Shown one piece after another: positions 5,653-32,326 of a DNA stretch of 64,000 bases. This DNA comes from an uncultured Myxococcales bacterium. Its GTDB lineage: Bacteria > Myxococcota_A > Polyangia > JAAYKL01. The stretch is from positions 915-64,914 of the forward strand of contig CAZHCG010000003.1 of the NCBI GenBank assembly GCA_964530995.1. Direction: 5' to 3'. The position numbers and the translations under genes are program-made. The first letter of the stretch is position 1. The number at the start of each line of letters is the position of its first letter. The notes below the pieces were generated by a model, which ran no database searches, was not told where the DNA came from, and was given only the letters and a program-made list of their open reading frames with translations.

Positions 5653-5728
5653 CGGCGACCCCGACGGGAATCGAACCCGTGCCGCCGGCGTGAAAGGCCG
5701 GTGTCCTCACCTCTAGACGACGGGGCCT
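5653..5728 (-). tRNA. tRNA-Glu (anticodon UUC); no encoded CCA.
   Basis: The reverse complement reads GGCCCCGTCGTCTAGAGGTGAGGACACCGGCCTTTCACGCCGGCGGCACGGGTTCGATTCCCGTCGGGGTCGCC. It forms a cloverleaf with GTTCGATTC in the T-loop and CTTTCAC in the anticodon loop. Ends are hand-counted, +/-2 nt. Confidence 0.85.
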
Positions 5729-5767
5729 AGTCGCGTTTCGATCTCTTTTCAATCGCGATCGTCGCTG

Positions 5768-5841
5768 TGAGCCGTGAAGGAATCGAACCTTCGACCTACG
5801 GATTAAAAGTCCGGTGCTCTACCTAGCTGAGCTAACGGCCC
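5768..5841 (-). tRNA. tRNA-Lys (anticodon UUU).
   Basis: The reverse complement reads GGGCCGTTAGCTCAGCTAGGTAGAGCACCGGACTTTTAATCCGTAGGTCGAAGGTTCGATTCCTTCACGGCTCA. It has the D-loop AGCTCAGCTAGGTAGAGC, the anticodon loop CTTTTAA and the T-loop GGTTCGATTCC. Ends +/-2 nt. Confidence 0.85.
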
Positions 5842-7015: not shown

Positions 7016-7032
7016 GTCAGAGGTGATCCGTC

Positions 7033-8988
7033 TTGAGATCCGCGATCTCCATCGCCCTGACCATCGCCGCCGGGTTGGCAGATGCATCGCCCGCGCGCGC
7101 CGAGGACCCCGCCGACGCCGGCGTGCCGTCGGCGACCGGCGATCAGCCGCTCGACAGTGATGCAGGGGCGCAAGGCGACGCAGATGCAGACCAGCCGAGC
7201 TTCCCGGCAGACTTCCCGGTCGTCGATCGCGCCTACGAGACGACAGTCAGCGCCAGGCGGCCGATCGCGCGAGACCGCACCCAGGACGATTTCGAGGTCG
7301 CCGGCGAACACTTGAGGGACAGCGTTCGAGCCAGCACGCTCGAGGCCCTCTCCCAGGAGAACGCGGGCATATACGTGCCGGGACGCGGCTCGTTTCACGG
7401 TGTGGCCAACGGCGCGACCGGCGGCATCTACATCCGGGGCCTGGGCGGAAGCCCCAACACGCAGGTGCTGGTCGTCGAGGACGGCGTCCCGGATTACATG
7501 GGGATCTTCGGCCATCCGATCCCGGATGCGTACGTTCCTTTTCTGATCGACGAGGCGCTGGTGATCAAGGGCGGCGACTCGGTGCTGTACGGCAGCAACG
7601 CGATGGGCGGCGTGGTGGCGCTGCGCAACCGCTGGCGCGATGCGGAGGGATTCGAGATCCTCAACGACGCGGCCTACGGCAGCTACTCGACCGTGCGGGA
7701 GACGGCCTCGCTGCTCGGCAGGACGGGGGACCTGGACCTGGCGGGGGCGTTTCACGCGGTCAGCACGGAGGGGCACAGAGACGGGGCCGGGGGGAACGAG
7801 ATCGTCGGTCACCTGGCCGCCCGCTACCGCTTCGAACCCGGGCTCAGGCTCACCGCGCGAAACAAGGTCGTCCACCTGGAGGGAACCGACCCGGGCCCGG
7901 TGACTCACCCCCATACCGGGCACTGGTACGACGTGTGGAGAAACAACACGTCGCTTCGGCTCGAGTGGAAACGCGATCCGATGCGCCTGACCGTCACCCC
8001 GTTCTTCAACCTCGGAGTCCACCGCCTCTACGACGGCTTCTTCTCCCGGGACCATCTCGCGGGCGGCAACGCCGAGATCGATCTCAGGCTCCATTCGACG
8101 ACCCGGCTCCTGCTCGGGCTCGGCGGTCAGCACGTGGACGGACGGGTGGAAAACCGCGCCGAAGAAGAGCGCACGCCGGTGCAGGGGCTTACCGACCTGT
8201 CGGCCTACGGGCAGATCACATTCCGGCCCGTTTCGCAGCTGTCGATCGTCGCCGGCGCCCGCTTCCTCAACAGCCTCACCTACGGACCCGTGCTACTGTA
8301 CAAGGGCGGCGCCCGCTGGGACGTCTACCGGGGTCTCTACGCCCGCACGCGGATCGCCCGCAACTTCCGCCAGCCGACGATCCGCGAGCTCTACCTGCCG
8401 TTTCCGACGGCAAATCCGGATCTGCGTCCCGAATACTCGCTGAACTGGGACTTCGGCCTGGGTTACGAGGCCGAGCACTTCGAGGTCTCGTGCAGCGGCT
8501 ATCGCACCCAGTCGGACGACATGATCCGGTACTTCGGCGCCTGGCCCACGGCGGAGGTGGTCAACATCGACAACATCGTCATATGGGGCGTCGAGGGGCG
8601 AGCGGGCGTACGTCGTCTCGGACCGATCTCGATGTTCGTCAGCGGCGACTGGCGGGACGTGGGTCGATACACGCGCCAGAACCCGCAGGCCAAGCTCGAC
8701 TTCACCCTCGAGGCGAGTCACGAGTTCACCCCGCACTTCGTCGGCGGCAGCCTGACCGGAGAGTGGGTTCACGGGCTCTACATGTCCAACTACGGCCGCG
8801 ACCCGCTCGACGACCCCTTTGCCATGAATCTGGCCTTCCGCTACCGCTACACCTCTTCGGAGCGGGGATTCACCCTCGAGCCCTACCTCTTCTTGCGCAA
8901 CTTTCTCGACAGACGCTACGCCTTCGTCGAGGGTTATCCCATGCCCGGCTTCCACGTTCTCGCCGGGTTGAAGGTGGGGCTGATATGA
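7033..8988 (+). CDS. TonB-dependent outer-membrane receptor, short BtuB-like class (651 aa).
   Basis: Signal peptide; a TonB-box-like ETTVSARRP; a plug domain reading NAGIYVPGRG...GGIYIRGLGGSPNTQVLVVEDGVPDYMGIF...VIKGGDSVLYGSNAMGGVVAL; and a long beta-barrel. The overall pattern resembles BtuB. It ends in Ile rather than the usual aromatic residue. Confidence 0.8.
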   Translation: MRSAISIALTIAAGLADASPARAEDPADAGVPSATGDQPLDSDAGAQGDADADQPSFPADFPVVDRAYETTVSARRPIARDRTQDDFEVAGEHLRDSVRASTLEALSQENAGIYVPGRGSFHGVANGATGGIYIRGLGGSPNTQVLVVEDGVPDYMGIFGHPIPDAYVPFLIDEALVIKGGDSVLYGSNAMGGVVALRNRWRDAEGFEILNDAAYGSYSTVRETASLLGRTGDLDLAGAFHAVSTEGHRDGAGGNEIVGHLAARYRFEPGLRLTARNKVVHLEGTDPGPVTHPHTGHWYDVWRNNTSLRLEWKRDPMRLTVTPFFNLGVHRLYDGFFSRDHLAGGNAEIDLRLHSTTRLLLGLGGQHVDGRVENRAEEERTPVQGLTDLSAYGQITFRPVSQLSIVAGARFLNSLTYGPVLLYKGGARWDVYRGLYARTRIARNFRQPTIRELYLPFPTANPDLRPEYSLNWDFGLGYEAEHFEVSCSGYRTQSDDMIRYFGAWPTAEVVNIDNIVIWGVEGRAGVRRLGPISMFVSGDWRDVGRYTRQNPQAKLDFTLEASHEFTPHFVGGSLTGEWVHGLYMSNYGRDPLDDPFAMNLAFRYRYTSSERGFTLEPYLFLRNFLDRRYAFVEGYPMPGFHVLAGLKVGLI

Positions 8989-9536
8989 GAGTGCGCCTTT
9001 CGGCTCGCGAGCTGGCCTTCTGCGGGGTGTTCGGAGCGGCTGCGCTGCTGCTCCCGGTGATCTTCCACGTGCTGCACCTGGGGCACATCTTCATGCCGAT
9101 GTACCTGCCGCTGGTGGCGTTGGCGTACTTCGTGCGCCCGCTGGCTGCGGCGTCGACCGCGATCGTCGCACCGCCGTTGTCCGGAGCGGTAACCGGGATG
9201 CCACCTTTCTTTCCGCCTGTGGCTGTCTTCATGTCGCTGGAGCTGGCCGCGATGGCTGCGCTGATCTCCTGGACGTGCACGCGCTGGCCTCGGGTCAACG
9301 AGTGGCTAGTGCTCATCCCGGCGCTGATCCTGGGAAGAGCGCTCTACGTCGGGCTCGTCTATCTCTTTTCTCTCTTCATCGATCTGCCCGCCGGCTTCAT
9401 GGCGGGTTTGTCGTTCCTGAGCGGCTGGCCGGGGATCGTCCTGATGGTCGCGGTGGTGCCGGTCATCGCCAGGACCAGCAGGCCCGCCAGGCGGCGCGTG
9501 GCGCGCTCGGGGAAAGGAGTCGCGAATGAGCACTGA
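8985..9536 (+). CDS. Small polytopic membrane protein (183 aa), candidate ECF-transporter substrate-capture (S) component.
   Basis: 5-6 predicted TM helices. The start overlaps the TBDR stop (ATATGA). It is followed by EcfT and EcfA homologues in overlapping reading frames. No family-specific motif was recognised by eye. Confidence 0.45.
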   Translation: MRVRLSARELAFCGVFGAAALLLPVIFHVLHLGHIFMPMYLPLVALAYFVRPLAAASTAIVAPPLSGAVTGMPPFFPPVAVFMSLELAAMAALISWTCTRWPRVNEWLVLIPALILGRALYVGLVYLFSLFIDLPAGFMAGLSFLSGWPGIVLMVAVVPVIARTSRPARRRVARSGKGVANEH

Positions 9537-10143
9537 AGCGAAAGTGGAGTTCTTCGATGGGATTGCTGAAAAGTGGGACGATTGGGAGGACCTGGAGGTC
9601 GTGGCCGGAAGGCTGTCGCGCGGCCTCGACGAGCTGGGAGTCACCTCCAAAGAGATCGTCGCCGACGTGGGCTGCGGTACGGGGAACCTGACCCGCGCCC
9701 TGCTGGACAGGCTCTCACGCGACGGGCGCGTGGTGGCGATCGATATCTCCTTTGCGATGGTCGCAAAGGCACGCCAGAAGGTTGCGGATCCCCGGGTCGA
9801 GTGGCACGTGGGCGACGCGACGCGCATCCCCATCGACGAGAGCTCCGTGGATCGGGTCATCTGCTTCTCGGTCTGGCCGCACTTCGATGATCCCGACGCG
9901 GTGATCGACGAGATCGACAGAATCCTTCGTCCCCGCGGCGTGCTGCACGTCTGGCACCTTTCCTCTCGCGCGACCGTCAACGAGATTCACGCCTCGGCCG
10001 GCGAGGCGGTGGCAAACGACGTGCTCGTCCCCGCCGTACGGACTGCGCGGACGCTGGAGGAGCACGGTTTCCGTCCTTACGAGGTCGTCGACGACGGAGA
10101 GCGGTACCTCGTGTCGGCGAAAAGAGCATCGCGAAATCGATGA
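9526..10143 (+). CDS. Class I SAM-dependent methyltransferase (UbiE/COQ5-like fold).
   Basis: Motif I VADVGCGTGNLT; FFDGIAEKWD at the N-terminus; an acidic motif II (VVAIDIS) and motif III (LRPRGVL). Overlaps the upstream gene by 11 nt and the downstream gene by 4 nt. Confidence 0.75.
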   Translation: MSTEAKVEFFDGIAEKWDDWEDLEVVAGRLSRGLDELGVTSKEIVADVGCGTGNLTRALLDRLSRDGRVVAIDISFAMVAKARQKVADPRVEWHVGDATRIPIDESSVDRVICFSVWPHFDDPDAVIDEIDRILRPRGVLHVWHLSSRATVNEIHASAGEAVANDVLVPAVRTARTLEEHGFRPYEVVDDGERYLVSAKRASRNR

Positions 10144-10895
10144 GGACGTCCTGGCACGACATCTGGGGCAGCGCGCGCGGTCCGGTCAAGAGACTCGTCC
10201 CGCAGGCGCGGCTCATCTGCGGCGTGTCGGTCTTCGCGAACTGCATGGTCGCTCCTGCGACACGCTGGGAAGGCGCGGTCGCGATCACGCTCGTGGTCGT
10301 CGCCTGGACCGCTTTGGTTGGGCCGCCCGTTCCGGTTCTCCGATCGACCCTGCTCCTCGGGCTCGCCCTGTTTCTTCCCTACTTCCTCCTCGTCCCGCTG
10401 ATCCGCGACCCGTCGGCCGGCAGGGGCTGGATGGAAGCTCTCACCGTGTCCTGGAACGTGTTCTTTCGCGGTGTGACCGCCATGCTAACGTCGGTCTGCA
10501 CGGCGAGCGCGCTGTCGGCAAGCGCGTTGCGACAAGGGATGAGCCGTCTCCCGGTCCCCGGTGTCCTTGCGGCGGTGCTGATCCAGATCGTGCACCAGGC
10601 TACGAGCCTGGTCTACGAAACTCGCCAGATCGCCTCGGCCATCGCCGTGCGCAGCGGAACGACCGGCTACCGAACCGGTCTACGGGTGCTGGCTTCGCTG
10701 CCCCGGGTCTGGTTGCCGCGAGTGGTGGAGCGGACCGAGCGGGTCGGCGCCGCCATGGAGCTGCGCGGCTACTGCGAACGGGATCCGGGTGATCTGGGAT
10801 CTCTCCCCATCGCCTGGAGGGATCGCTCGGCGATCGGCCTGGCCCTGGCGACCGTGGCCGGGGCCGCGGCGCTCCGCGTCTGGAGAGGGTTCTGA
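10140..10895 (+). CDS. Energy-coupling factor transporter transmembrane (T) component, CbiQ/EcfT family.
   Basis: 251 aa with about 5 TM helices. Arg-containing coupling-helix-like segments (ETRQIASAIAVRSG, MELRGY). Positioned immediately before an EcfA-type ATPase with a 1-nt overlap. Confidence 0.6.
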   Translation: MRTSWHDIWGSARGPVKRLVPQARLICGVSVFANCMVAPATRWEGAVAITLVVVAWTALVGPPVPVLRSTLLLGLALFLPYFLLVPLIRDPSAGRGWMEALTVSWNVFFRGVTAMLTSVCTASALSASALRQGMSRLPVPGVLAAVLIQIVHQATSLVYETRQIASAIAVRSGTTGYRTGLRVLASLPRVWLPRVVERTERVGAAMELRGYCERDPGDLGSLPIAWRDRSAIGLALATVAGAAALRVWRGF

Positions 10896-11587
10896 TGCCG
10901 GAGGCGTTGCGTTGCGCGAAGATCACGGTACGGTACGAGCCGGATGCGGCTCCGACGCTCTCCGACGTCTCCTTCTCCGTGGAGGAGGGCGAGCGCGTGG
11001 CGCTGGTCGGGCTCAACGGAACGGGCAAGACCACGCTCCTCATGTCGCTCGTCGGTCTCGTACCCCATGCAGGAGAAATCGAAATCTGCGGGAAAACGCT
11101 CGACCGCCGGAACGTCGGCGAGATCCGTCGCAAGATCGGGTTCCTGTTCAACGTGCCCGAGGACCAGCTCCTCTTTCCCACGGCGATCGAGGACGTCGCC
11201 TTCGGCCTTCTCCAGGCGGGGAGGAGCCGGGGAGAGTCGTTCGAGCTGGCGGAAGATGCCCTGGAGAGATTCGGTATCGGCACACTCGGGAATACGCCAC
11301 TGCATCACCTGTCCCACGGTCAGAAGCAACGGGTCGCGCTGGCCGGCGCGCTGGTTACCGAGCCCCCGTTGCTCCTGTTGGACGAGCCGACCGCCGGCCT
11401 CGATCCTCCCGGCAAGCTCGAGCTGGCGGAGTTGCTCTGCGCGCAGACCTCTGCCCAGCTGATCGCCACCCACGACCTGGACTTCGCCGATCGGGTCTGC
11501 TCGCGCATCGCTCTGATCGAGGGAGGGACTGTCGCCGAGTCGTCCGTGGGCACAACGGAAATTCGATCCCGTTGGAAGTTGGTGTGA
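10895..11587 (+). CDS. ABC/ECF transporter ATP-binding protein (EcfA/CbiO-like).
   Basis: Walker A GLNGTGKTT; Q-loop; ABC signature LSHGQKQRVALAGAL; Walker B LLLLDEP; H-loop ATHD. Confidence 0.85.
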   Translation: MPEALRCAKITVRYEPDAAPTLSDVSFSVEEGERVALVGLNGTGKTTLLMSLVGLVPHAGEIEICGKTLDRRNVGEIRRKIGFLFNVPEDQLLFPTAIEDVAFGLLQAGRSRGESFELAEDALERFGIGTLGNTPLHHLSHGQKQRVALAGALVTEPPLLLLDEPTAGLDPPGKLELAELLCAQTSAQLIATHDLDFADRVCSRIALIEGGTVAESSVGTTEIRSRWKLV

Positions 11588-11654
11588 GCACCTTTCGAAG
11601 CGCTTGCCCCATATCCGCGATCCTGGAGATTCGGAAAGTTGACGAGAAACCGGG

Positions 11655-12776
11655 CTAGGAGATTTGCAGATCTTCTCCCGGGGCCAGCCAGCTCGCGATG
11701 AAAGCGTCGAGGTCGCCGGCGGCGATCGCTTCTCTGGCGCCGCGCATCATCTCTCCGTAGTGGTGCAGGTTGTGCACGCTCATCAAGCGCGCGGCGAGCA
11801 TCTCTCCGGCCAGGTAGAGGTGGCGCAGGTAGCGGCGATCGAAGCGCCTGCAGCAGGGACACTCGCAGGCGGGGTCGAGGGGCAGCGGATCCTCGGCCCA
11901 GCGGGCCTGCTTGATGTTGATCCTCCCGCCGCGGACGAACACCTGGCCGTTGCGCGCGTTGCGGGTCGGCATCACGCAGTCGAACATGTCGATCCCCGAG
12001 CGCACCGCCGCCAGGATGTCCTCGGGCCCGCCGACGCCCATCAGGTAGCGCGGGCGCTCGGCGGGCATACGGTGCGCGACCGCCTCGAGCACGCGGTACA
12101 TCTCCTCGGTCGGCTCGCCGACCGACAGCCCTCCCAGCGCCAGACCCTCGAACGGCAGGGCGGACAGCTCTTCGATCTGAGCCAGCCGCAGGTCCTCGTG
12201 CGTACCCCCCTGCGCGATCCCGAACAGCGCCTGCCCGGCGGGACGCTCGACCTCCAGCGCGCGCCGCGCCCAGGCCGCGGTGCGATCCGCGGCGCGCGCC
12301 AGCCGCTCGCGGTCCGCCTCTCCCGGCGGGCACTCGTCGAGCGCCATCGCGATGTCGGATCCCAGGGCGCCCTGGATCTCGATCGCCCGCCTTGGAGTCA
12401 GCTCGATCCGCGTCCCGTCTATGTGCGAGGAAAAGACCACGCCGTTGTCGTCGATCCGGACCCGCTCGCCGAGGCTGAAGACCTGGAAGCCGCCCGAGTC
12501 GGTCAGCGTCGGCCCTTCCCATCCCATGAAGCGCGCCAGCCCGCCGGCGCGGCGGATCAGCTCCGGGCCGGGGCGCAGCAACAGGTGGTAGGTGTTGCCC
12601 AGCACGATCGAGGCGCCGCTGGCCCGCACCTCGTCGGGGTCGAGCGCCTTGACCGCGGCTCGGGTTCCGACCGGCATGAACACCGGGGTCGGCGATCGGC
12701 CTTGCGGCGTGCGCAGCGTGCCGCGCCGGGCCCGGCCGTCTACCGCCTCGACCGAGAACGAGAAGCCGTCGCTCAT
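11655..12776 (-). CDS. tgt: tRNA-guanine transglycosylase (queuine tRNA-ribosyltransferase).
   Basis: TPVFMPVGT; LGNTYHL; TDSGGFQVFSL; zinc site CECPCC...H; MPTRNARNG. The start was chosen at MSDGFSF (374 aa). The 434-aa ORF extension upstream is Arg/Ala-rich and atypical. Confidence 0.9.
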   Translation of the reverse strand: MSDGFSFSVEAVDGRARRGTLRTPQGRSPTPVFMPVGTRAAVKALDPDEVRASGASIVLGNTYHLLLRPGPELIRRAGGLARFMGWEGPTLTDSGGFQVFSLGERVRIDDNGVVFSSHIDGTRIELTPRRAIEIQGALGSDIAMALDECPPGEADRERLARAADRTAAWARRALEVERPAGQALFGIAQGGTHEDLRLAQIEELSALPFEGLALGGLSVGEPTEEMYRVLEAVAHRMPAERPRYLMGVGGPEDILAAVRSGIDMFDCVMPTRNARNGQVFVRGGRINIKQARWAEDPLPLDPACECPCCRRFDRRYLRHLYLAGEMLAARLMSVHNLHHYGEMMRGAREAIAAGDLDAFIASWLAPGEDLQIS

Positions 12777-13828
12777 CTCCCGCTTCCTTTCCGCGGCAGC
12801 ACCAGCATCGCGTCTCCGTAGCTGTAGAAGCGAAACCGCTCTCGCACCGCGCGGTGGTAGGCCTCCAGCAGGCGCTCGCGTCCGGCCAGCGCGGCCACCA
12901 GGCACAGCAGGGTCGAGCGCGGCAGGTGGAAGTTGGTCAGCAGACCGTCGACCACGCAAAAATCGAACGGCGGCGCGATGAACAGCTCGGTGAAGCCGCG
13001 ACCCGCCTCGAGCCGGCCGTTCTCCAGCGCCAGTCCTTCCAGCGCGCGGACCACGGTCGTGCCGACCGCGATCACCGCACGGCCCTCGTCCCGCGCGCGC
13101 CGGATCGCGGCCGCCTCCCTCGCGCCGACGCTGTAGGCCTCGGCGTCCATGCGGTGGTCCTCGATCTCGTCGGTCGCGATCGGCCGGAAGGTCCCGGGTC
13201 CCACGTGCAGGGTGACGAACACGACCTCGTGCCCGCCGCGGGAGATCTCCTCCAGCAGCTCGGAGCTGAGGTGCAGGCCGGCCGTGGGCGCGGCCACCGA
13301 GCCGTCCTCGCGGGCGAAGACCGTCTGGTAGCGCTGCCGGTCGTCCCGCTCCGGCGCGCGCCGGATGTAGGGGGGGAGCGGAACCTCGCCGCGCCGCTCG
13401 ACGCGCCGGCGGAAGACCGCGGCTCCTTCTCCGATCTCCAGCGTCAGGTAGCCGTCCTCCGAGCGCCCGACGACCTCGCTCTCTGCACCGGCGAGGTCGA
13501 TCCTGTCTCCGGAACGCAGGGAACGATTCGCACGCGCCATAGCTCGCCAGCGACAGCTGTTCGCGCCCGCCTCCAGCTCCCGCACCAGCAGCACCTCTAC
13601 CGCGCCGCCGCTGGGACGCCGCGCGCGCAGGCGGGCGGGGATCACGCGGCTGTCGTTGGCCACCAGCAACGCCCCGTCGGGCAGCAGCGCCGGCAGATCG
13701 GAGATTCGCGCCAGCAGCTCGCCCCCTTGCGGCGGAAGCACCATCAACCGTCCGCCGTCGCGCCGCGCCGAAGGACGCTGGGCGATCAGCTCGCCGGGGA
13801 GATCGTAGTCGAAAAGAGGGGTTCTCAC
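12773..13828 (-). CDS. queA: S-adenosylmethionine:tRNA ribosyltransferase-isomerase.
   Basis: FDYDLPGELIAQRP at the N-terminus; GEVPLPPYIRR; the TFxxxHLPRSTL-type segment FHLPRSTLLCLV. A GTG start is proposed at 13828. The stop overlaps the tgt start by 4 nt. Confidence 0.88.
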   Translation of the reverse strand: MRTPLFDYDLPGELIAQRPSARRDGGRLMVLPPQGGELLARISDLPALLPDGALLVANDSRVIPARLRARRPSGGAVEVLLVRELEAGANSCRWRAMARANRSLRSGDRIDLAGAESEVVGRSEDGYLTLEIGEGAAVFRRRVERRGEVPLPPYIRRAPERDDRQRYQTVFAREDGSVAAPTAGLHLSSELLEEISRGGHEVVFVTLHVGPGTFRPIATDEIEDHRMDAEAYSVGAREAAAIRRARDEGRAVIAVGTTVVRALEGLALENGRLEAGRGFTELFIAPPFDFCVVDGLLTNFHLPRSTLLCLVAALAGRERLLEAYHRAVRERFRFYSYGDAMLVLPRKGSGR

Positions 13829-15900
13829 TTGACGGTGATCTGGTAGGGAGCCATCAGCGTCGACTCGGCCGGTCGATCCATCAGCTGGACACGCCTGATC
13901 GCCTTCAGGACGAAGCAGACGGGACCGGGGCCCTCCGGAATCGCGGCGGTCAGCCCCTGGCCGGTTCCCTGCTCCTCGACGACTCGCTCCTCGTTCCAGG
14001 GGCCCAGCAGAAAGCCGAGCCGGATCTGCACATCCGGGATCGGAGTGACCGTCACCGAGCTCGCCCGGGCGCTGGCCGGCAGGCAGTACCAGTCGGTGTC
14101 GGAGAAGACCTCGATTATGCCGTTCTTGGTCGCGCCGACCCGGATCGGACTGGCCTGGGCACGAGTGTCGTTGGGCTCTGTTTCGAAGAACTCGGGTGCA
14201 TAGGTCTGGTACGAAACCGCGTAAGCCGCCCCGGCGAAGCTGCTGGGCGGCACGCCGGGACGGCGCATCTCCTGCACCAGCAGGTAGACCTCCGGAATCT
14301 CGACTCGCAGCGGCGGGATCGACTCGCCGCCCCCCTGGCCGTTTCCGTCGACCCGCGCCAGCGGATCCTCCTGCGACGGATCGACCAGCTGCAGGCCGAG
14401 GTCGAGACCGGGCACGCCGCTCACGTCGACCTGCAGCCCCCACGCTCCCTGCGCGGGATCCGGCGAGCTCAGCCTGTACCAGTCGACGTCTTGACGGCCG
14501 TCGGGCTTGGAGATCGTACCGGTCAGCCGGATTCCCGCCGCGAGCGGATCCGCCGTCGCCGGGGAGTCGTTGGGCTCGGTCTCGGCGTTCGCCAGGCTGT
14601 CGTCGGCGCCGTGGACGAACAGCGCCCAGTAGGCGCAGGCGGCGATCGCGGCCGCGGCCAGCAGCGAGAGGGACACGGCGGTGACGACGCGCTTGCGTCT
14701 CAGGCGTTTTTCGAAGTGGATCACGTCCTCGCGGGTTCCCAGCGTCACCTCGCGGGCGCCGACGGTGACCGTCGAGGGTCGAGTGCTCCGCCGCGACTGC
14801 GCTTCGGCTTCGACCGCGACCGATGGCGCCGGGAACTGCGTGACCGGAGTCGCCTCGTCGGCGGCCTCCACCCTTTCCGCCGCCTCGCCAGCGCTCGGGA
14901 TTCCGTCTCCCACCGAGAGCCGCTGGTGCCGGGATTCCGGGTCGAGGCGCACGGACAGCTCCGCCATCTCCCGGCGCATCTCCTCGGCGGAGGCGTAGCG
15001 CTCCTCGGGCGTCTTGGCCATCGCACGCAGCACGATCCGGTCGGCCTCGGACGGGATCTTTCGCTGGGGAAAGCACTGGGAGGGAGGGTCGATCTTCTCG
15101 GTGAGGTGCTTGGTCAGCACGCCCATCGGCGTGTCGGCGGAGAACGGCGTCTCGCCGGTCAGCAGCTTGTACATCACAGCTCCCAGCGAGTAGACGTCCG
15201 AGCGCGCGTCGACCCCATCGCCGCGGATGTGCTCGGGCGCCATGTAGTACGGCGTGCCGACCAGGTTCCCCTCCTTGGTGATCTTGGTCGCCTCCCGCAC
15301 GTCGCGCAGCTTGGCCAGCCCGAAGTCGAGCACCTTGACGAAGTCCGGGTAGTCGTACTGCTGGGAGACCAGGATGTTCTCGGGCTTGATGTCGCGGTGG
15401 ACTATCCCCTTGTCGTGGGCCTCGATCAGAGCCGAGCAGGTCTGGACCAGCACGTGGGCGACCCGCGCCGCAGGCATCGGGCCCTCTAAGCGCAGCACCT
15501 CGGCCAGGTCCCGGCCCTCGATGTACTCCATCACCAGGTACATCATTCCCTGGTGGGAGCCGAAGTCGAAGACCGAGACGGTGTTGAGGTGGGTCAGGCG
15601 GCTGACGGCCTCGGCCTCGAGGCGAAACCTCTTGGCGACCTCCTGGTCCTGGCCGAGCTCCCCGTGGAGGAGCTTCATCGCCATGACCTTGCCCATCTTG
15701 ACGTGCTCGACGCGGTAGACCGCCCCCATCCCTCCCCTGCCGATCAGGTCGACCAAGCGGTAGCGATCATCGATAACGACGCCGATCAACGGGTCCGCCG
15801 CGCGCGCGGGGGCGCCCTCGGTCGCCAGCCGCGTCCCGCAGGTTCCGCAGAACGCTACCGGCTCGTCGTAGGTCGCGTGGCAGTTGGGACATTCCACCAA
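13825..15900 (-). CDS. Membrane Ser/Thr protein kinase: N-terminal zinc ribbon, Hanks-type kinase domain, one TM helix, and two extracellular PPC-like (ETEPND...DWY) repeats.
   Basis: CPNCHATY..CGTCG ribbon. Kinase motifs GRGGMGAVY, AMK, HRDIKPEN, DFG and APE. TM segment VVTAVSLSLLAAAAIAACAYWALFV. Two repeats beginning TEPND and ending DWY. Its 5' end overlaps the queA GTG start by 4 nt. Confidence 0.85.
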   Translation of the reverse strand: MVECPNCHATYDEPVAFCGTCGTRLATEGAPARAADPLIGVVIDDRYRLVDLIGRGGMGAVYRVEHVKMGKVMAMKLLHGELGQDQEVAKRFRLEAEAVSRLTHLNTVSVFDFGSHQGMMYLVMEYIEGRDLAEVLRLEGPMPAARVAHVLVQTCSALIEAHDKGIVHRDIKPENILVSQQYDYPDFVKVLDFGLAKLRDVREATKITKEGNLVGTPYYMAPEHIRGDGVDARSDVYSLGAVMYKLLTGETPFSADTPMGVLTKHLTEKIDPPSQCFPQRKIPSEADRIVLRAMAKTPEERYASAEEMRREMAELSVRLDPESRHQRLSVGDGIPSAGEAAERVEAADEATPVTQFPAPSVAVEAEAQSRRSTRPSTVTVGAREVTLGTREDVIHFEKRLRRKRVVTAVSLSLLAAAAIAACAYWALFVHGADDSLANAETEPNDSPATADPLAAGIRLTGTISKPDGRQDVDWYRLSSPDPAQGAWGLQVDVSGVPGLDLGLQLVDPSQEDPLARVDGNGQGGGESIPPLRVEIPEVYLLVQEMRRPGVPPSSFAGAAYAVSYQTYAPEFFETEPNDTRAQASPIRVGATKNGIIEVFSDTDWYCLPASARASSVTVTPIPDVQIRLGFLLGPWNEERVVEEQGTGQGLTAAIPEGPGPVCFVLKAIRRVQLMDRPAESTLMAPYQITVK

Positions 15901-15937
15901 GAGATCACCTATCGACCGTCGTCGTTCGCGATCGAGC

Positions 15938-17911
15938 TCAACGCCTGCGCCGTTTTTTCTTCTCGTCGTCCTCGCTGAGCAGCACGTAGGCGGCGTCGAC
16001 GGCCGGCATGGTCTCCTTTTCGCCCCCGCGGAGCTCCACGCCCCGCTTGCCCTTGACCGTACCGTAGACGTCGACCTGCGATTGCAGTCCGGCCCGGGTC
16101 TCGCCGCGGAACGTGACGTACACGGCGCAGCGCGCCCCGGCGGGACAGCCCTCGCCGATGTAGAGCAGCATCGCGGTCACGCCTTTTTCCGTGCTCATGT
16201 TGACCACTCTGCCGCTTAGCACGACCTTCTTGCCGGTGTGCAGGTCGGGATCGCGGGCGATGGTCGGATAATCCAGCTTGCGATTCGCGTCCTCGGCCCA
16301 TTCCTCGACGGCACCGTCGAGGCTCTCAACCCGCGTGACCTCGATTCGACGCTCGCGGGGCGCCTTCTCCGGGGCGCGCGCCTCGACCTCGATCACGTGC
16401 TCGCCGAACTCGTCGAGCGGCACGCTGGTGCTGAAGCGGGTCGCGGTCACGGCCGCGGGCTCGCCGTTGACCGTGACCCGGGCGCCCTCCTCGGTCGCGC
16501 CGGCACAGGTCACCTCTTCCATCTCGACCACGGCGCCGTCGGTCGGCCGGTCGATCTGGAGCCTGGCCAGCGGAATCGCCACCACGTGCTGTCCCTGCTC
16601 GGTGGTCCCGTCCGGACCGGTAAGCTGGAACGGGATCCTCTCGATCAAATTGTCTCCCTCGGAGTTCTCTGCTCCCTCGAGCCTGGACAGCGGAACGCGC
16701 AGCTCGAAGGCGCCGTTTACCAGCTTGGCCTTCTGCCCACCCACGGCCAGCTCGTTGCCCGGGGCGACCTGGAAGGCGACCTCGAAGTACGGCTCGGCCG
16801 TGGTCAGCCCGGACAGGTCGGTCGCGACGGTATGACGCAGCACGACCGGGAAGCTCAGCTTCTCCGGCGCGCCGCCGGGCTCGACGTAGCTCACCTGGAC
16901 GTTGTTCTCTCCCAGCGACAGCTCGCTCATCGGCAGGTCGAACCTGGCCTGTCCGGAGACGACCGGGACCTGCTCGCCCCGGACCTGGACCGCGGCGCCG
17001 TCGGGGGCGTCGGGGATCGGCAGCACCACGGTCAGGCTCTCCCCGTCGGCGCTGGGAAAGACCTGGGGCCTGCCGCCGCCCGAGTCGGCGAACACCAGCA
17101 GGTAGATCAGCGCCGCCAGCCCGGCGACGACGACGATCCCTCCCACGATCAACGCCACCAGCACGCCGGAGCCCTTGCCAGCGGGCGCGGGCTCGTCTTC
17201 GTCCCAGTCGTCCATTCCCGCCGGCTGGGGAGCGCTGCGCTGCGCGGGCTCGAGCGGCTCGGTCGCGGATCTCCTCCTGGCCTCCTGCCGGGAGAGATCC
17301 TCATCGGAAGGAGCTTGGATGTCGTCCAGGGTCGGCGTCTCGTTGGGATCGGGCGAAGCCGGTGCTGGCCCTCCGGAGGGTTTCGGCGACCCCGGTGCGG
17401 GTTCTGCGGAAGATTGTGACGCCACCTGCTTTGCGGCTTGCCGCCCGGAGTCTCCCCCGCCCGCCTGCTTCGGATCCTCCCCGGTCACTGCGGGCATGCC
17501 CAACACGGTCCGCTTGTCGCGAGCAGAGCCGCCGCCGGCCGGCGCTTGCTGCGAGGGCTGCTGTCCGCTCGGCTTCGCGACCGGAGCCGGCTCGGCGACC
17601 GGAGCCGGCTCGGACGGCTGCTGCTGCGCGCCCGCGGCCGGCACGCCGAGCATCGTCTTGGCCGGGGCCTTCTTCGGCTGCTGAGCCGGCTGGGCGGGCT
17701 GGGCGGGCTGAGCGGGCCTGGCGGTGGGAGGCGCTTGCTGCTGCGCGCCCGCGGCCGGCACGCCGAGCATCGTCTTGGCCGGGGCCTTCTTCTTCTCGGG
17801 CTCGCGGCGCGCCGGCTGACCCTGATCACCGGAGAGAGGGCTGCCGCACGCCGAGCAGAACTGCTCACCGTCCTTGTTCTGCGTCCCGCACATCTTGCAA
17901 GTCAACGGCAC
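15938..17911 (-). CDS. Zinc-ribbon membrane/surface protein, hypothetical (657 aa).
   Basis: N-terminal double CxxC ribbon (CKMCGT..CSACGS). A duplicated KKKAPAKTMLGVPAAGAQQQ motif. A Pro/Ala/Gln-rich linker. One TM helix. A roughly 380-aa beta-rich ectodomain. Ends 37 nt upstream of the kinase gene. Confidence 0.6.
   Translation of the reverse strand: MPLTCKMCGTQNKDGEQFCSACGSPLSGDQGQPARREPEKKKAPAKTMLGVPAAGAQQQAPPTARPAQPAQPAQPAQQPKKAPAKTMLGVPAAGAQQQPSEPAPVAEPAPVAKPSGQQPSQQAPAGGGSARDKRTVLGMPAVTGEDPKQAGGGDSGRQAAKQVASQSSAEPAPGSPKPSGGPAPASPDPNETPTLDDIQAPSDEDLSRQEARRRSATEPLEPAQRSAPQPAGMDDWDEDEPAPAGKGSGVLVALIVGGIVVVAGLAALIYLLVFADSGGGRPQVFPSADGESLTVVLPIPDAPDGAAVQVRGEQVPVVSGQARFDLPMSELSLGENNVQVSYVEPGGAPEKLSFPVVLRHTVATDLSGLTTAEPYFEVAFQVAPGNELAVGGQKAKLVNGAFELRVPLSRLEGAENSEGDNLIERIPFQLTGPDGTTEQGQHVVAIPLARLQIDRPTDGAVVEMEEVTCAGATEEGARVTVNGEPAAVTATRFSTSVPLDEFGEHVIEVEARAPEKAPRERRIEVTRVESLDGAVEEWAEDANRKLDYPTIARDPDLHTGKKVVLSGRVVNMSTEKGVTAMLLYIGEGCPAGARCAVYVTFRGETRAGLQSQVDVYGTVKGKRGVELRGGEKETMPAVDAAYVLLSEDDEKKKRRRR
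17621..17792. repeat. Two identical 55-bp direct repeats (17621-17675 and 17738-17792), separated by a GGGCTGGGC x3 micro-tandem, inside the zinc-ribbon protein gene.
   Basis: The sequence ctgctgcgcgcccgcggccggcacgccgagcatcgtcttggccggggccttcttc occurs twice. It encodes the duplicated ...KKAPAKTMLGVPAAGAQQQ peptide. The intervening ctgggcgggctgggcgggctg encodes PAQPAQPAQ. Confidence 0.8.
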
Positions 17912-18242
17912 TTCGGGTGACCTCCCTGGGTGAACGCGCCGCCCGGAAGACCCGCGACAAAAAGGCGCGCCCCGGAGCGGTCCGCATGTTCCAAGTCACC
18001 GAATACCTTATCCCAATCGACGACGAAACCCAAACAGTAGACATGGAGTCGCTCACCGCGACGGAGTCGGCGCCCTCGAGAACGCCTTGCGCCTTTGCGG
18101 CCCGGGTGGAACGCCGTGCCGGCGGGGTCGTCTTCCAGCATCCGAACTCTGCTTTTCGGAATGCTCACAACACCGCGAGACACGGTCGTCCCGGTTGCGC
18201 TATGCTGGGCCGGATCGCGCCGGGCGGCGGCGGAGGAGAGAG

Positions 18243-18833
18243 ATGAGGATCATCGCCGGAACGGCCAGGGGACGCAGGCTGCTCGTTCCCCGCGGCCGCG
18301 AGGTGCGCCCCAGCTCGGATCGCGTCCGCGAGGCGCTGTTCTCCAGCCTCGGAGATGCGGTGCGCGGCGCCCGCGCGCTGGATCTGTTCGCCGGCACCGG
18401 CGCGCTCGCCCTCGAGGCATTGAGCCGGGGCGCGTCCGGGGCGGTGCTGGTCGAGAGCTCGCGGCGGGTGCTGGAAGTCCTGCGGCGCAACGTGGAGCTG
18501 GCCGGCTTCTCCGACTCGGCCAGGATCGTCCCCGGCGCGGCCGAGGCGGCGCTCCGGAGGCTGTCTTCCGCCGGCGAGCGCTTCGAGCTGGTCTTCCTCG
18601 ATCCGCCCTACGACGATCGCGCCGCGCTGGTCGTGGCACTCGCCGCGCTGACCGACGGCGCCCTGCTGGCCAACGGAGCGCTGGTCGCGGTCGAGAGCCG
18701 CAGCGGCGGCCGGCTCGAGTCGCCGCGGGGCTTGCGAACCACCTGGAACAGAAGCTATGGTGACACCGAGCTGACCGTATTGCGCGCCGAGAAAGAGCCC
18801 AGCTTTTCGGCCCAGGAGGAACCGAGACCGTGA
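18243..18833 (+). CDS. rsmD: 16S rRNA (guanine966-N2)-methyltransferase RsmD.
   Basis: MRIIAGTARGRRL; LDLFAGTGALALEALSRGA; the (D/N)PPY motif FLDPPYD. 196 aa. The stop overlaps the coaD start. Confidence 0.8.
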   Translation: MRIIAGTARGRRLLVPRGREVRPSSDRVREALFSSLGDAVRGARALDLFAGTGALALEALSRGASGAVLVESSRRVLEVLRRNVELAGFSDSARIVPGAAEAALRRLSSAGERFELVFLDPPYDDRAALVVALAALTDGALLANGALVAVESRSGGRLESPRGLRTTWNRSYGDTELTVLRAEKEPSFSAQEEPRP

Positions 18834-29479: not shown

Positions 29480-30433
29480 TCAACGCGCCGATTCAGATTC
29501 GCTTTCGAAAAAGCGGCGCGCGCGCCGGATCCATTCCTCCCCGTCGGGAGCGATCCACTCCACGCCGCTTTCGCCGCGCAGCCAGGTGCGCTGGCGCCGG
29601 GCCAGCCGGCGCGTGTCCACGCGGGTCTTCTCCGCCGCTTCGGCGAGGCTCAGCTCTCCGGCCAGGTGCTGGCAGATGCGGCGGTAGCCCAGCCCCTGGA
29701 GCGGCTTGAGCGAGGGATCGTACCCGCGGGCCAGCAGGTCGCGCACCTCGTCGAGAAAGCCGCGCTCCATCATCAGCGCCACTCGCCGCGCGATGCGTCG
29801 ATCCAGATCCTCTCGCTCGCGGTCCACCGCACAGATCCGGGCCGGGTAGCGCCGCTCGCCGAAGCGGTGTCGCCGCTGCCACTCGGAGAGCAGAACGCCG
29901 CTTTGCTCGGCGACCTCCAGCGCGCGCAGGATGCGTACGCCGTCGTTGGGGTGCAGGCGCTCGGCCGTGGGCGGGTCGATCGCGGCCAGTTCGCGGTGCA
30001 GCGCCGGCCAGCCCTCGCGCTCGGCCCGCTGCGAAATCCGCTCGCGCAGCCGGGGATCCGGGGGCGGGCCGCCCTGCAGGCCGCGCAGCAGCACGCGGAT
30101 GTAGAGCCCGGTTCCGCCGGCCACGATCGCGCGCCGGCCGCGAGAGGCGATCCCCTCGATTGCGCGGTCGGCGTCCCGCGCATAGGCGACCGCGTCGTAA
30201 GGCCGGTCCGGATCGACGATTCCGATCATGTGGTGGGGCACGCCGCCCAGCTCCTCGCGGCTGGGCGCGGCGGTGCCGATCCGCATCTGGCGGTAGACCT
30301 GCATCGAGTCGGCGCCGACGATCTCGCCGTCCAGCCGCGCGGCGATTTTCACGGCGATCTCGGTCTTGCCGCTCGCGGTGGGGCCGGCGACCACGAACAG
30401 CGGCACGGGAGCCGGTGGGGGCGCGCCGGGCAC
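29480..30433 (-). CDS. miaA: tRNA dimethylallyltransferase.
   Basis: P-loop GPTASGKT; ADSMQVYR; the conserved IPP-transferase core. Its position downstream of mutL is conserved. Confidence 0.9.
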   Translation of the reverse strand: MPGAPPPAPVPLFVVAGPTASGKTEIAVKIAARLDGEIVGADSMQVYRQMRIGTAAPSREELGGVPHHMIGIVDPDRPYDAVAYARDADRAIEGIASRGRRAIVAGGTGLYIRVLLRGLQGGPPPDPRLRERISQRAEREGWPALHRELAAIDPPTAERLHPNDGVRILRALEVAEQSGVLLSEWQRRHRFGERRYPARICAVDREREDLDRRIARRVALMMERGFLDEVRDLLARGYDPSLKPLQGLGYRRICQHLAGELSLAEAAEKTRVDTRRLARRQRTWLRGESGVEWIAPDGEEWIRRARRFFESESESAR

Positions 30434-30436
30434 TTC

Positions 30437-32260
30437 CTAGTCCCGGCCCACGCGCCGCCGGATCTCGCGCCACGGGATCCGGGCCAGCACCGGCCTGCCG
30501 TGCGGGCAGTGACCTGCCATCTCGATCCGATCCATCTCCTCGAGCAGCGCGATCGCCTCGTCGCGTCCCACCTCGCGCCCGCCGCGGATCGATCCGTGGC
30601 AGGCGATCGTGGCCAGCGCGCGATCGTCGCTCTCGCCGCGCGATCCGTCGCGCGACTCCTCGAGCGCCAGCACCATCTCGGCCAGCAGCCTGTCCGGCGA
30701 GGCGCCGGCCAGCTCGGCCGGCACGGAGCGCACCGAGATCCGCTCCGGCCCGCTGCGCTGAATCTCCAGGCCCAGCCGCTCCAGCGCCTCGGCCAGCCCT
30801 TCGATCCGCTCCGCCTCGGCCGGACCGAGGTCGACGGCGTGAGGGACCAGCAGCCGCTGCGAGGAGACGCGGCCCTCGGCCAGCTGCTCGCGCAGCCGCT
30901 CGAAGGTGACCCGCTCGTGGGCCGCGTGCTGGTCCAGGATCACCAGGTCGTCCTCGTCCTCGAGCAGCAGGAACGTCCCCTGCGCCTGGCCGACGAAGCG
31001 CAGCGAGGAGAAGTGCCTCTCCCGGTCGCTGGTCACGAGCCGCTGCGGCTCGGGGCGAATCGGGCCGCCCGGTCCGGGAGCGGGCCGCCCGGCGCGCCGT
31101 CCGGGTTCGTCGGGGCCGCCGCGGCGCGGCCTGACGCCGCCCGGGCGCGGAGCCGGGAACGAGGGCGGCGGGACCAGGCGATCCGAGCCGGAGCGGTAGG
31201 CGGCGTCCTCCTCGGCGATCGACTCGGCCCCGGCCTCCGGCCGCGCGGTCCGGGCCGGCTCGCCCAGCGACCAGACCGAGCGGGAGACCATCTCCGCCAC
31301 CGTGCGGCTCACCGCGCGATAGACGGCGCGCGGATCGGCGAAGCGCACCTCGGTCTTCTGGGGATGTGCGTTGACGTCGATCCCCTCGCTCGGCATCTCG
31401 ACGGCGAGAGTGCCGACCGGATATCTCCCTTTCTCCAGCGTGCCGCCGAACGCCTGGTGCACGGCCTTGAGCAGCGCCCGGTCACGCACGAAGCGCCGGT
31501 TTACGAAGGTGTACAGCGACCCGGCGCCGGCGCGGGCGCGCTCCGGCGGGCCCAGCACGGCCAGGACCTCCACGCCGTCCAGCTTCGCCTCGAAGCGGGC
31601 CAGCCGCTCGTCGGAGAAGAGCTCGGAGATCCGCTCCTCGATCCGCTCGGCGCGCGGCAGCTCCTTGGAGGTGCGCCCGCCGACCACCACGCCGAACGCC
31701 ACCTCGGGGCGCACCAACGCGAGGCGCATCACCGCCTCGACGCAGTGGCCGGTCTCGGTGCTTTCGCGCTTGAGGAACTTGAGCCGCGCCGGCGTGTTGA
31801 AGAACAGGTCGCGCACCTCGATGTCGGTGCCGACCGGGCAGCCCGCCTCGCGCCGGGAGAGCAGCTCGCCGGCCTCGAGCTCGAGGCGGGTTCCGGCCAG
31901 CGTCTCCTCGCTGCGCGTGTGCACGGTGATCCGCGAGACCGAGGCGATCGAGGGCAGCGCCTCACCGCGGAAACCGTAGGTCCCGGCCCGCGCGATGTCG
32001 TCGAGGCGCGAGATCTTGCTGGTCGCGTGGCGGAAGAAGGCGGCCTCGACGTCTTCGGATGCGATGCCCGATCCGTTGTCCAGCACCCGCATCCGGGCCG
32101 CGCCCCCGCCGTCGATCTCGACGCGGACGCGCGTGGCCCCGGCGTCGAGGCTGTTCTCGACCAGCTCCTTGATCGCGGAGCCGGGACGCTCCACGACCTC
32201 TCCGGCCGCGATCTGGTCGGCGACGATGCGATCGAGAACGAGGATCCGCCTCCGGCTCAT
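30437..32260 (-). CDS. mutL: DNA mismatch repair protein MutL.
   Basis: GHKL ATPase motifs: IAAGEVVERPGSAIKELVENSLDAG, VLDNGSGI and YGFRGEAL. The C-terminal dimerisation domain is present. The start was chosen at MSRRRILVLD. Confidence 0.9.
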   Translation of the reverse strand: MSRRRILVLDRIVADQIAAGEVVERPGSAIKELVENSLDAGATRVRVEIDGGGAARMRVLDNGSGIASEDVEAAFFRHATSKISRLDDIARAGTYGFRGEALPSIASVSRITVHTRSEETLAGTRLELEAGELLSRREAGCPVGTDIEVRDLFFNTPARLKFLKRESTETGHCVEAVMRLALVRPEVAFGVVVGGRTSKELPRAERIEERISELFSDERLARFEAKLDGVEVLAVLGPPERARAGAGSLYTFVNRRFVRDRALLKAVHQAFGGTLEKGRYPVGTLAVEMPSEGIDVNAHPQKTEVRFADPRAVYRAVSRTVAEMVSRSVWSLGEPARTARPEAGAESIAEEDAAYRSGSDRLVPPPSFPAPRPGGVRPRRGGPDEPGRRAGRPAPGPGGPIRPEPQRLVTSDRERHFSSLRFVGQAQGTFLLLEDEDDLVILDQHAAHERVTFERLREQLAEGRVSSQRLLVPHAVDLGPAEAERIEGLAEALERLGLEIQRSGPERISVRSVPAELAGASPDRLLAEMVLALEESRDGSRGESDDRALATIACHGSIRGGREVGRDEAIALLEEMDRIEMAGHCPHGRPVLARIPWREIRRRVGRD

Positions 32261-32326
32261 GCACCGTTTGTGCAACGCGCCCGGCGGCGAGTCAAACGCA
32301 ACCGATCGCGCGAGGCGGACGCACGG

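Follow-up and report, generated by a model that had tools for sequence, protein, structure and literature searches.

A zinc-ribbon receptor kinase and its constant membrane partner in an apparent operon with queA and tgt in Myxococcota

The 64-kb stretch of DNA analyzed here (hereafter, the window) derives from contig CAZHCG010000003.1 of an uncultured Myxococcales bacterium and has a G+C content of ~70%. At positions 11655-17911, it contains four genes that are arranged head to tail on the minus strand and encode a zinc-ribbon membrane protein, which we call ZnRTM, a receptor-type Ser/Thr kinase and the two tRNA-modifying enzymes QueA and Tgt. In the reading we favor, to which we assign a probability of about 50%, ZnRTM and the kinase form a previously undescribed two-protein receptor-kinase module, and their genes are joined in one operon, with translational coupling, to housekeeping queA-tgt genes, whose products act in their normal role. 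The features of the locus are as follows:

15938-17911, minus strand: ZnRTM gene, an open reading frame (ORF) of 657 aa for a zinc-ribbon single-pass membrane protein of an uncharacterized Myxococcota family
15901-15937, minus strand: ZnRTM/kinase spacer of 37 nt, with the Shine-Dalgarno sequence AGGTGA at 15905-15910
13825-15900, minus strand: kinase gene, encoding a receptor Hanks-type Ser/Thr kinase of 691 aa from TTG at 15900 or 690 aa from GTG at 15897
13825-13828, minus strand: kinase/queA junction GTGA, in which the kinase stop codon TGA (13825-13827) overlaps the queA start codon GTG (13826-13828)
12773-13828, minus strand: queA, 351 aa, encoding tRNA preQ1(34) S-adenosylmethionine ribosyltransferase-isomerase
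12773-12776, minus strand: queA/tgt junction ATGA, in which the queA stop codon (12773-12775) overlaps the tgt start codon ATG (12774-12776), with the Shine-Dalgarno sequence AAGGAAG 6 nt upstream
11655-12776, minus strand: tgt, 373 aa, encoding tRNA guanosine(34) transglycosylase, the last gene of the four-gene block
17912-18242, no strand: divergent intergenic region between ZnRTM and rsmD, 331 nt, the sole non-coding space able to house an operon promoter

The signs of a single ZnRTM-kinase-queA-tgt transcript all lie in the layout of the sequence, namely the shared strand, the 4-nt overlaps, the 37-nt spacer and the conservation of the junctions. Both overlaps and the short gap downstream of ZnRTM had already been described in an initial annotation of this DNA, and a reading of the junctions bore them out; the range given at that time (12773-17911) leaves tgt beyond position 12776 outside. 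Of the two potential start codons of the kinase gene, GTG at 15897 appears more probable than TTG at 15900. It is located seven bases past the Shine-Dalgarno sequence and yields the 690-aa product that corresponds to entry P0001 of a public collection. The block is flanked by the divergent rsmD-coaD genes upstream of ZnRTM and by a convergent ECF/ABC transporter cluster beyond tgt, whose end lies 67 nt from the stop (11587) of the convergent ABC ATPase gene. Since it is bounded by divergent genes on one side and a convergent gene on the other, the four-gene block stands as a unit of its own, for which there is only one obvious promoter location. Within the rsmD ORF, the Cons_hypoth95 alignment begins at M53, i.e. 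at position 18243. A consensus-based scan of positions 11400-18400, which is powerless in G+C-rich DNA, returned no promoter and, on the other strand, one site resembling a terminator (0.3 and 2.5 in shuffled sequences), and a search for a hairpin after tgt did not find one.

Full-length orthologs of the kinase are found in Myxococcota, with sources including Polyangia, Sandaracinaceae and Sandaracinus amylolyticus (39-90% identity, 90-100% coverage). We compared the gene neighborhoods of twelve orthologs and of at least ten family-like loci obtained from two scans of contig collections. The scan of genome contigs, performed with the full kinase alignment, selected for generic motifs (HRDLKPEN, GRGGMGVVY), such that only 2 of the 80 matches were family-like, whereas a scan of metagenome contigs with a family-specific 45-aa block provided at least eight usable family loci. 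The control set comprised 150 non-family kinase loci (1.64 Mb) from both scans; these and all following counts refer to the matches and loci listed. The ZnRTM gene is positioned directly upstream of the kinase gene in each of the 18 main-family loci that include upstream DNA. ZnRTM and the kinase are therefore an invariant, strictly co-inherited core pair. By comparison, of the 19 family loci with enough sequence past the kinase gene, 9 have queA-tgt downstream of it in the same orientation. The initial annotation was thus right about the structure of the locus, a same-strand block with overlapping codons, but it overlooked that the kinase has its constant partner in ZnRTM rather than in queA-tgt, the linkage to which has been lost in about half of the family.

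In a neighbor-joining tree, the window belongs to a clade (clade A; 46-100% kinase identity) in which queA-tgt are present in seven of nine loci, including one that ends inside queA and was counted as linked. The GTGA junction between the kinase gene and queA is identical in the window and all six linked clade-A relatives, and in one of these loci queA and tgt are separated by a gene on the reverse strand. Two distant lineages retain the association with one or three additional genes in between: a Myxococcales bin outside clade A shows the order ZnRTM-kinase-(beta-propeller-like gene)-queA-tgt, and a separate deep branch the order ZnRTM-kinase-(related 386-aa gene)-PIN-PAS histidine kinase-queA-tgt. 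Neither queA nor tgt was detected in any of the 150 control loci. The difference between family and control loci is associated with a Fisher p value of 4e-8, which is uncorrected for phylogeny and treats family loci as if they were independent observations. This comparison with relatives, which had been set beforehand, speaks for the proposed synteny and indicates that the linkage did not arise by chance in this one genome, but is old, non-random and able to survive insertions. It is ancestral at least to the clade of the window and probably to the whole kinase family. The ten loci that lack it comprise two members of clade A, Sandaracinus and seven others; the linkage is dispensable, because it was lost in these ten loci and even twice within clade A.

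The survey also revealed other genes that recur next to the module. A lipoprotein of ~335 aa without a Pfam family is encoded directly upstream of ZnRTM in nine loci (L001, L002, L003, L005 and L169-L173; ~1 kb upstream), often preceded by a gene for a ~250-aa protein. In the outgroup loci L009, L010 and L089, the gene immediately preceding that of the kinase encodes a weaker relative. Neither the lipoprotein nor the ~250-aa protein was found anywhere in the 64-kb window. Since both genes are absent and rsmD-coaD are found in their position, the window has lost part of the ancestral cluster through a rearrangement. Moreover, a secreted protein of ~380 aa with a faint PQQ_2/beta-propeller signal is encoded right after the kinase gene, or overlapping its end, in loci L006 (9003-10145), L007 (9048-10175) and L173 (10025-11185). 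These three loci are distant members of the family, and the proteins share 26-29% mutual identity; the ancestral module may have included such a protein as its third component, since lost by the clade of the window. In L170, a clade-A relative without queA-tgt, the kinase gene is followed at 9193-11811 by a lasso-peptide-type set of genes for PqqD, a transglutaminase-like core and an asparagine synthase homolog.

Among the known receptor Hanks-type kinases, the kinase represents a new variant in domain architecture, composed of a zinc ribbon, a kinase domain, a membrane span and two domains of the PPC/collagen-binding type:

15826-15891, minus strand: N-terminal C4 zinc ribbon (residues 4-25), with C4, C7, C18 and C21 invariant in 31 orthologs
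14983-15762, minus strand: catalytic domain (residues 47-306), matched by Pkinase
14614-14688, minus strand: transmembrane segment (~residues 405-429), the lone hydrophobic segment, with RLRRKR just before it on the cytoplasmic side
14194-14589, minus strand: PPC/collagen-binding-type domain 1 (~residues 438-569), with invariant E440, E442, P443 and N444 ... D471 and D473
13828-14190, minus strand: PPC/collagen-binding-type domain 2 (~residues 571-691), with invariant E573, E575 and N577 ... D603

Its catalytic domain matches Pkinase (PF00069) over residues 47-306 with 176.2 bits (gathering threshold 31.7; E 1e-51). The motifs expected of an active enzyme, GRGGMG (54-59), MAMK with K76, HRDIKPEN (168-175), DFG (192-194) and APE (221-223), are all invariant in 31 orthologs, which align from end to end. 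Because RLRRKR precedes the only membrane span, the kinase domain is assigned to the cytoplasm and the last 260 residues to the outside. The N-terminal ribbon remains below the cut-off of Pfam Zn_Ribbon_1 (PF13240; 19.2 bits versus 25). Its spacing, C-x2-C-x10-C-x2-C, is identical to that of the ribbon in ZnRTM, and the two sequences can be aligned with an E value of 0.01, in agreement with the previously noted similarity of the ribbons. The prediction of a single transmembrane segment per protein also held, with one hydrophobic segment in each of them. The best NCBIfam match of the kinase is PknB_PASTA_kin (NF033483), which reaches 340.5 bits (cut-off 450) and covers only residues 40-430. The kinase lies outside the group of Stk1/PknB PASTA kinases, as it misses this cut-off and has an ectodomain of the PPC rather than the PASTA type. 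It shares its overall layout with PknB/Stk1-type kinases: a Hanks domain at the N terminus in the cytoplasm, a single span of the membrane and sensor repeats outside the cell. However, its sensor has two PPC/collagen-binding-type domains in place of PASTA repeats, and it differs further in its extra N-terminal C4 zinc ribbon, its constant pairing with ZnRTM and its restriction to a Myxococcota family.

The initial annotation had recognized two PPC-like repeats in the ectodomain, a proposal that fails at the level of the sequence profile and stands at the level of the fold. The Pfam PPC model (PF04151) scores below threshold (14.3 versus 25.9 bits; E 0.08), even though three orthologs (P0101, P0115 and P0118) have a precomputed match to it, and a phmmer search of the ectodomain against the sequences in the PDB returned no matches. 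An AlphaFold model of the ectodomain based on 60 homologs has a pLDDT of 90.8, and the top PDB match in a Foldseek search is 5IKU, the tandem collagen-binding domains s3a-s3b of the collagenase ColG, at an E value of 1.7e-12. Single-domain matches, including ColG s3b, the ColH collagen-binding domain (CBD) and the PPC domain of a Bacillus anthracis collagenase, show target-normalized TM scores of 0.70-0.77 and rmsd values of 3.4-4.5 (1NQD, 2O8O, 4HPK, 3JQW, 5SV5). It is the fold comparison alone, and not the sequence profile, that confirms the modeled ectodomain as a tandem of PPC/collagen-binding-type beta-sandwiches.

The closest structural counterpart is thus the s3a-s3b region of ColG from Hathewaya histolytica (PPC superfamily; 5IKU, 1NQD), which shows the same beta-sandwich fold in tandem (single-domain target-normalized TM score ~0.75). 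In the kinase, an acidic E-x-E-x-N-D stretch precedes each of the two domains and a D-x-D-aromatic stretch lies within it; the invariance of both acidic sets (E440-D473 and E573-D603) is evident from the ortholog alignment. These E-x-E...D-x-D positions would correspond to the double calcium site of ColG (1NQD), and the PPC domains of the kinase may bind calcium. ColG differs in that it is a secreted protease rather than a membrane-bound kinase; sequence identity amounts to 14-18%, and the Pfam PPC score of the kinase is sub-threshold. When the ectodomain alone was compared with 1.84 billion representative sequences, 1258 proteins were retrieved at E <=0.001. Many of them are multi-repeat secreted proteins; the domain is thus widely used in proteins outside the cell and serves here as a kinase sensor.

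ZnRTM belongs to a small, unannotated family (56 homolog clusters, with names such as 'hypothetical' or 'zinc-ribbon domain-containing' at most). It is organized as follows:

17834-17899, minus strand: N-terminal C4 zinc ribbon (residues 5-26)
17753-17776, minus strand: motif copy 1, KTMLGVPA (residues 46-53), with T47 kept in at least 90% of the family members
17636-17659, minus strand: motif copy 2, KTMLGVPA (residues 85-92), with T86 invariant
17489-17512, minus strand: motif copy 3, RTVLGMPA (residues 134-141), with T135 and G138 invariant
17090-17164, minus strand: transmembrane segment (~residues 250-274), the lone hydrophobic segment, with a Kyte-Doolittle 19-residue maximum of 2.93
15941-17089, minus strand: periplasmic part with three Ig-like beta-sandwiches, a C-terminal beta-barrel with invariant C589/C595 and a basic KKKRRRR tail

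Pfam detects Zn_Ribbon_1 (PF13240; 3.4e-7, 30.3 bits versus a cut-off of 25) and Glucodextran_B (2e-14). The cytoplasmic linker comprises ~220 residues, is rich in Pro, Ala and Gln, disordered and, apart from one motif, unalignable. This motif, [KRH]T[MV]LG[MV]PA, is present two to six times in every cytoplasmic tail of the family (39/39 members), as opposed to a single occurrence in total across their ectodomains. Being conserved and encoded beside a kinase gene, its threonine residues suggest themselves as candidate sites at which the kinase may dock or transfer phosphate. Within the ZnRTM gene, positions 17615-17792 on the minus strand form an imperfect tandem repeat (period 60 nt, TRF score 156) that encodes KKAPAKTMLGVPAAGAQQQ units. 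The closest relative, P0121 (83% identity), has four copies of the threonine motif instead of the three present here, so that copy number differs even among close relatives. The model of the periplasmic part has a pLDDT of 89.5, and a fold search of the ectodomain against the PDB gave only generic multi-Ig matches, with no functional lead. At the very C terminus (15941-15970, minus strand), the protein carries an acidic-then-basic tail, EDDEKKKRRRR, whose Lys/Arg run is kept in the closer orthologs.

The products of queA and tgt have every appearance of orthodox housekeeping enzymes, with no sign of specialization. QueA exceeds the cut-offs of the NCBIfam equivalogs NF001140 (410.2 versus 324 bits) and TIGR00113 (341.4 versus 267 bits), and its residues 1-345 align with positions 1-344 of the 346 in NF001140. 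Tgt matches TIGR00430 with 460.7 bits (cut-off 306.75), and the archaeal TgtA, ArcS and DpdA models remain far below their cut-offs. The model alignments of both proteins open at the proposed starts and cover their full length; both are of ordinary size and contain no extra domain or extension. No further queuosine gene was found near the block, and an Rfam search of the window revealed no preQ1 or other riboswitch and matched only two tRNAs. In E. coli, too, tgt comes right after queA, and the two share a transcription unit with functionally unrelated membrane-protein genes (queA-tgt-yajC-secD-secF). The myxobacterial locus differs in that the unrelated genes, encoding ZnRTM and the kinase, are located upstream, queA has no space for a promoter of its own, and the gene following tgt is convergent rather than yajC-secDF.

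In the reading we prefer, the kinase would sense a periplasmic ligand through its PPC domains, possibly in a calcium-dependent manner, and would phosphorylate or dock on the conserved threonine motifs of ZnRTM as its dedicated partner or substrate. The queA-tgt genes would be transcribed together with the kinase gene and coupled to it in translation, with this coupling working at the level of expression rather than enzyme activity, and the four-gene arrangement would be a retained ancestral operon. Several points weigh against this view. There may be an internal promoter in the 3' coding region of the kinase gene, a question on which a consensus scan is uninformative at 70% G+C. In addition, the neighborhood is kept across a divergence of the kinases down to 40-43% identity, beyond the range of most hitch-hiking arrangements, which could reflect a functional tie. 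The proposed phosphorylation of ZnRTM is suggested by motif conservation and gene order, and we know of no kinase or FHA consensus that the [KRH]T[MV]LG[MV]PA motif would fit. Calcium binding, finally, is suggested by the fold match together with the calcium site of ColG.

The retention of gene order over such distances could mean that the module controls the queuosine modification of tRNA itself, through phosphorylation of QueA or Tgt or signal-dependent synthesis of these enzymes, such that an extracellular cue would retune the decoding of NAU/NAC codons. Signal-dependent control of Q-tRNA synthesis had been raised in the initial annotation as one option, besides shared transcription alone. 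The recurrence of queA-tgt in three deep kinase branches despite insertions, their absence from the 150 other kinase loci and the preservation of the GTGA translational-coupling junction from 46 to 100% kinase identity are all compatible with this idea. We nevertheless consider it unlikely, given that the linkage was lost in 10 of 19 loci, two of them in the clade of the window, whereas ZnRTM and the kinase are never separated. Moreover, neither enzyme has acquired a regulatory domain or extension, the surroundings contain neither a further queuosine gene nor a preQ1 riboswitch or a tRNA that is a Q substrate, and our literature searches retrieved no bacterial example. It is quite improbable that ZnRTM and the kinase form an envelope sensor with a queuosine output, in which ligand binding to the PPC domains, perhaps dependent on calcium, would activate the kinase and lead to threonine phosphorylation of ZnRTM and to direct or indirect tuning of the activity or synthesis of QueA and Tgt; if true, signals would be seen for the first time in a bacterium to regulate Q34 modification of tRNA and, with it, codon-biased translation. 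A precedent for Ser/Thr-kinase signaling at the Tgt step exists in mammals, where protein kinase C (PKC) acts on queuine incorporation (reviewed in PMC4425180). That case concerns the biochemical regulation of a eukaryotic salvage enzyme without genetic linkage, whereas in the window there is genetic linkage alone.

At the other extreme, queA and tgt could be adjacent to the module without being co-transcribed with it, if they were expressed from a promoter of their own within the last part of the kinase gene and the overlap reflected only compaction, with a gene order inherited without selective meaning. Housekeeping genes for tRNA modification are often part of mixed operons with internal promoters, examples being queA-tgt-yajC-secDF and mutL-miaA-hfq in E. 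coli; the window itself contains mutL-miaA, and the dispensability of the linkage would also suit this explanation. It is made improbable by the lack of intergenic space, with the start of queA inside the stop of the kinase gene and an identical junction in the window and six relatives, by the retention of the gene order in distant branches with different surrounding genes and by the absence of the linkage from all 150 control loci. A role of the kinase in anti-phage defense, as a PD-T4-6-type protein, is extremely improbable. PADLOC profiles for PD-T4-6 match the kinase with an E value of 5e-97, and the NCBIfam models MAD6 and PglW match weakly. However, most of the PD-T4-6 matches span little beyond the generic catalytic domain, in a database without a curated cut-off, the NCBIfam defense models stay far below their cut-offs (167 versus 460 and 91 versus 990), and ZnRTM has no match among the PADLOC profiles. 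The kinase is, furthermore, a membrane receptor with a conserved ectodomain. Its setting in the core chromosome, in a window that includes dnaK, rsmD, coaD and mutL-miaA, and the vertically conserved synteny outweigh the strong but generic PD-T4-6 matches, and we have therefore dropped this explanation. Co-transcription of an independent receptor-kinase module with housekeeping queA-tgt genes remains the reading we prefer.

The chain of overlapping genes that converges on tgt (7027-11587) resembles an ECF system for uptake of the cobalt/corrinoid type, with a methyltransferase gene set among its components:

7027-8988, plus strand: TonB-dependent receptor gene, the first gene of the chain
8985-9536, plus strand: gene for a 183-aa multi-pass membrane protein (ECF_trnsprt E 0.31 only)
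9526-10143, plus strand: S-adenosylmethionine (SAM) methyltransferase gene, with best matches to the DVU_1556 family and the corrinoid-associated CpaM, both sub-cut-off
10140-10895, plus strand: gene for a CbiQ-like T component
10895-11587, plus strand: gene for a CbiO-like ATPase, the last gene of the chain

We considered this cluster as an importer of queuosine precursors and rejected the idea, as it gave no match to QueT or any other specific component and its constituents are those of a cobalt/corrinoid-type ECF system and a TonB receptor. The tRNA genes in the window do not include a queuosine substrate:

5654-5727, minus strand: tRNA-Glu(UUC)
5767-5841, minus strand: tRNA-Lys(UUU)
57756-57840, minus strand: tRNA-Gly(CCC)

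At 29480-32326 on the minus strand, miaA, encoding a tRNA isopentenyltransferase (IPPT 5e-83), directly follows mutL, a classical pairing; it constitutes a second gene for the modification of the tRNA anticodon loop within a mixed operon of the same window.

The initial annotation had regarded the arrangement as not previously described, and our searches are in line with this: a full-text literature search gave no paper that combines queA, tgt, threonine kinase and queuosine, and searches for a link between bacterial kinases and queuosine or for zinc-ribbon myxobacterial kinases returned nothing specific. We found no description of a kinase-queA-tgt operon, and the ZnRTM family is uncharacterized; nothing about the system is categorically new. 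If queA and tgt are mere passengers, what remains of the finding is a domain architecture and a conserved gene pair, both of them new, and its interest would be modest. The ZnRTM-kinase pair matters independently of its neighbors, as it combines an unusual sensor made of tandem collagen-binding-type domains with a clean candidate substrate motif. To our knowledge, few of the hundreds of orphan kinases of myxobacteria offer features of this kind. Bacterial queuosine genes are generally regarded as constitutive housekeeping genes. The presence of a receptor kinase beside queA-tgt across deep myxobacterial lineages thus provides a concrete place to ask about the signal control of tRNA wobble modification in bacteria.

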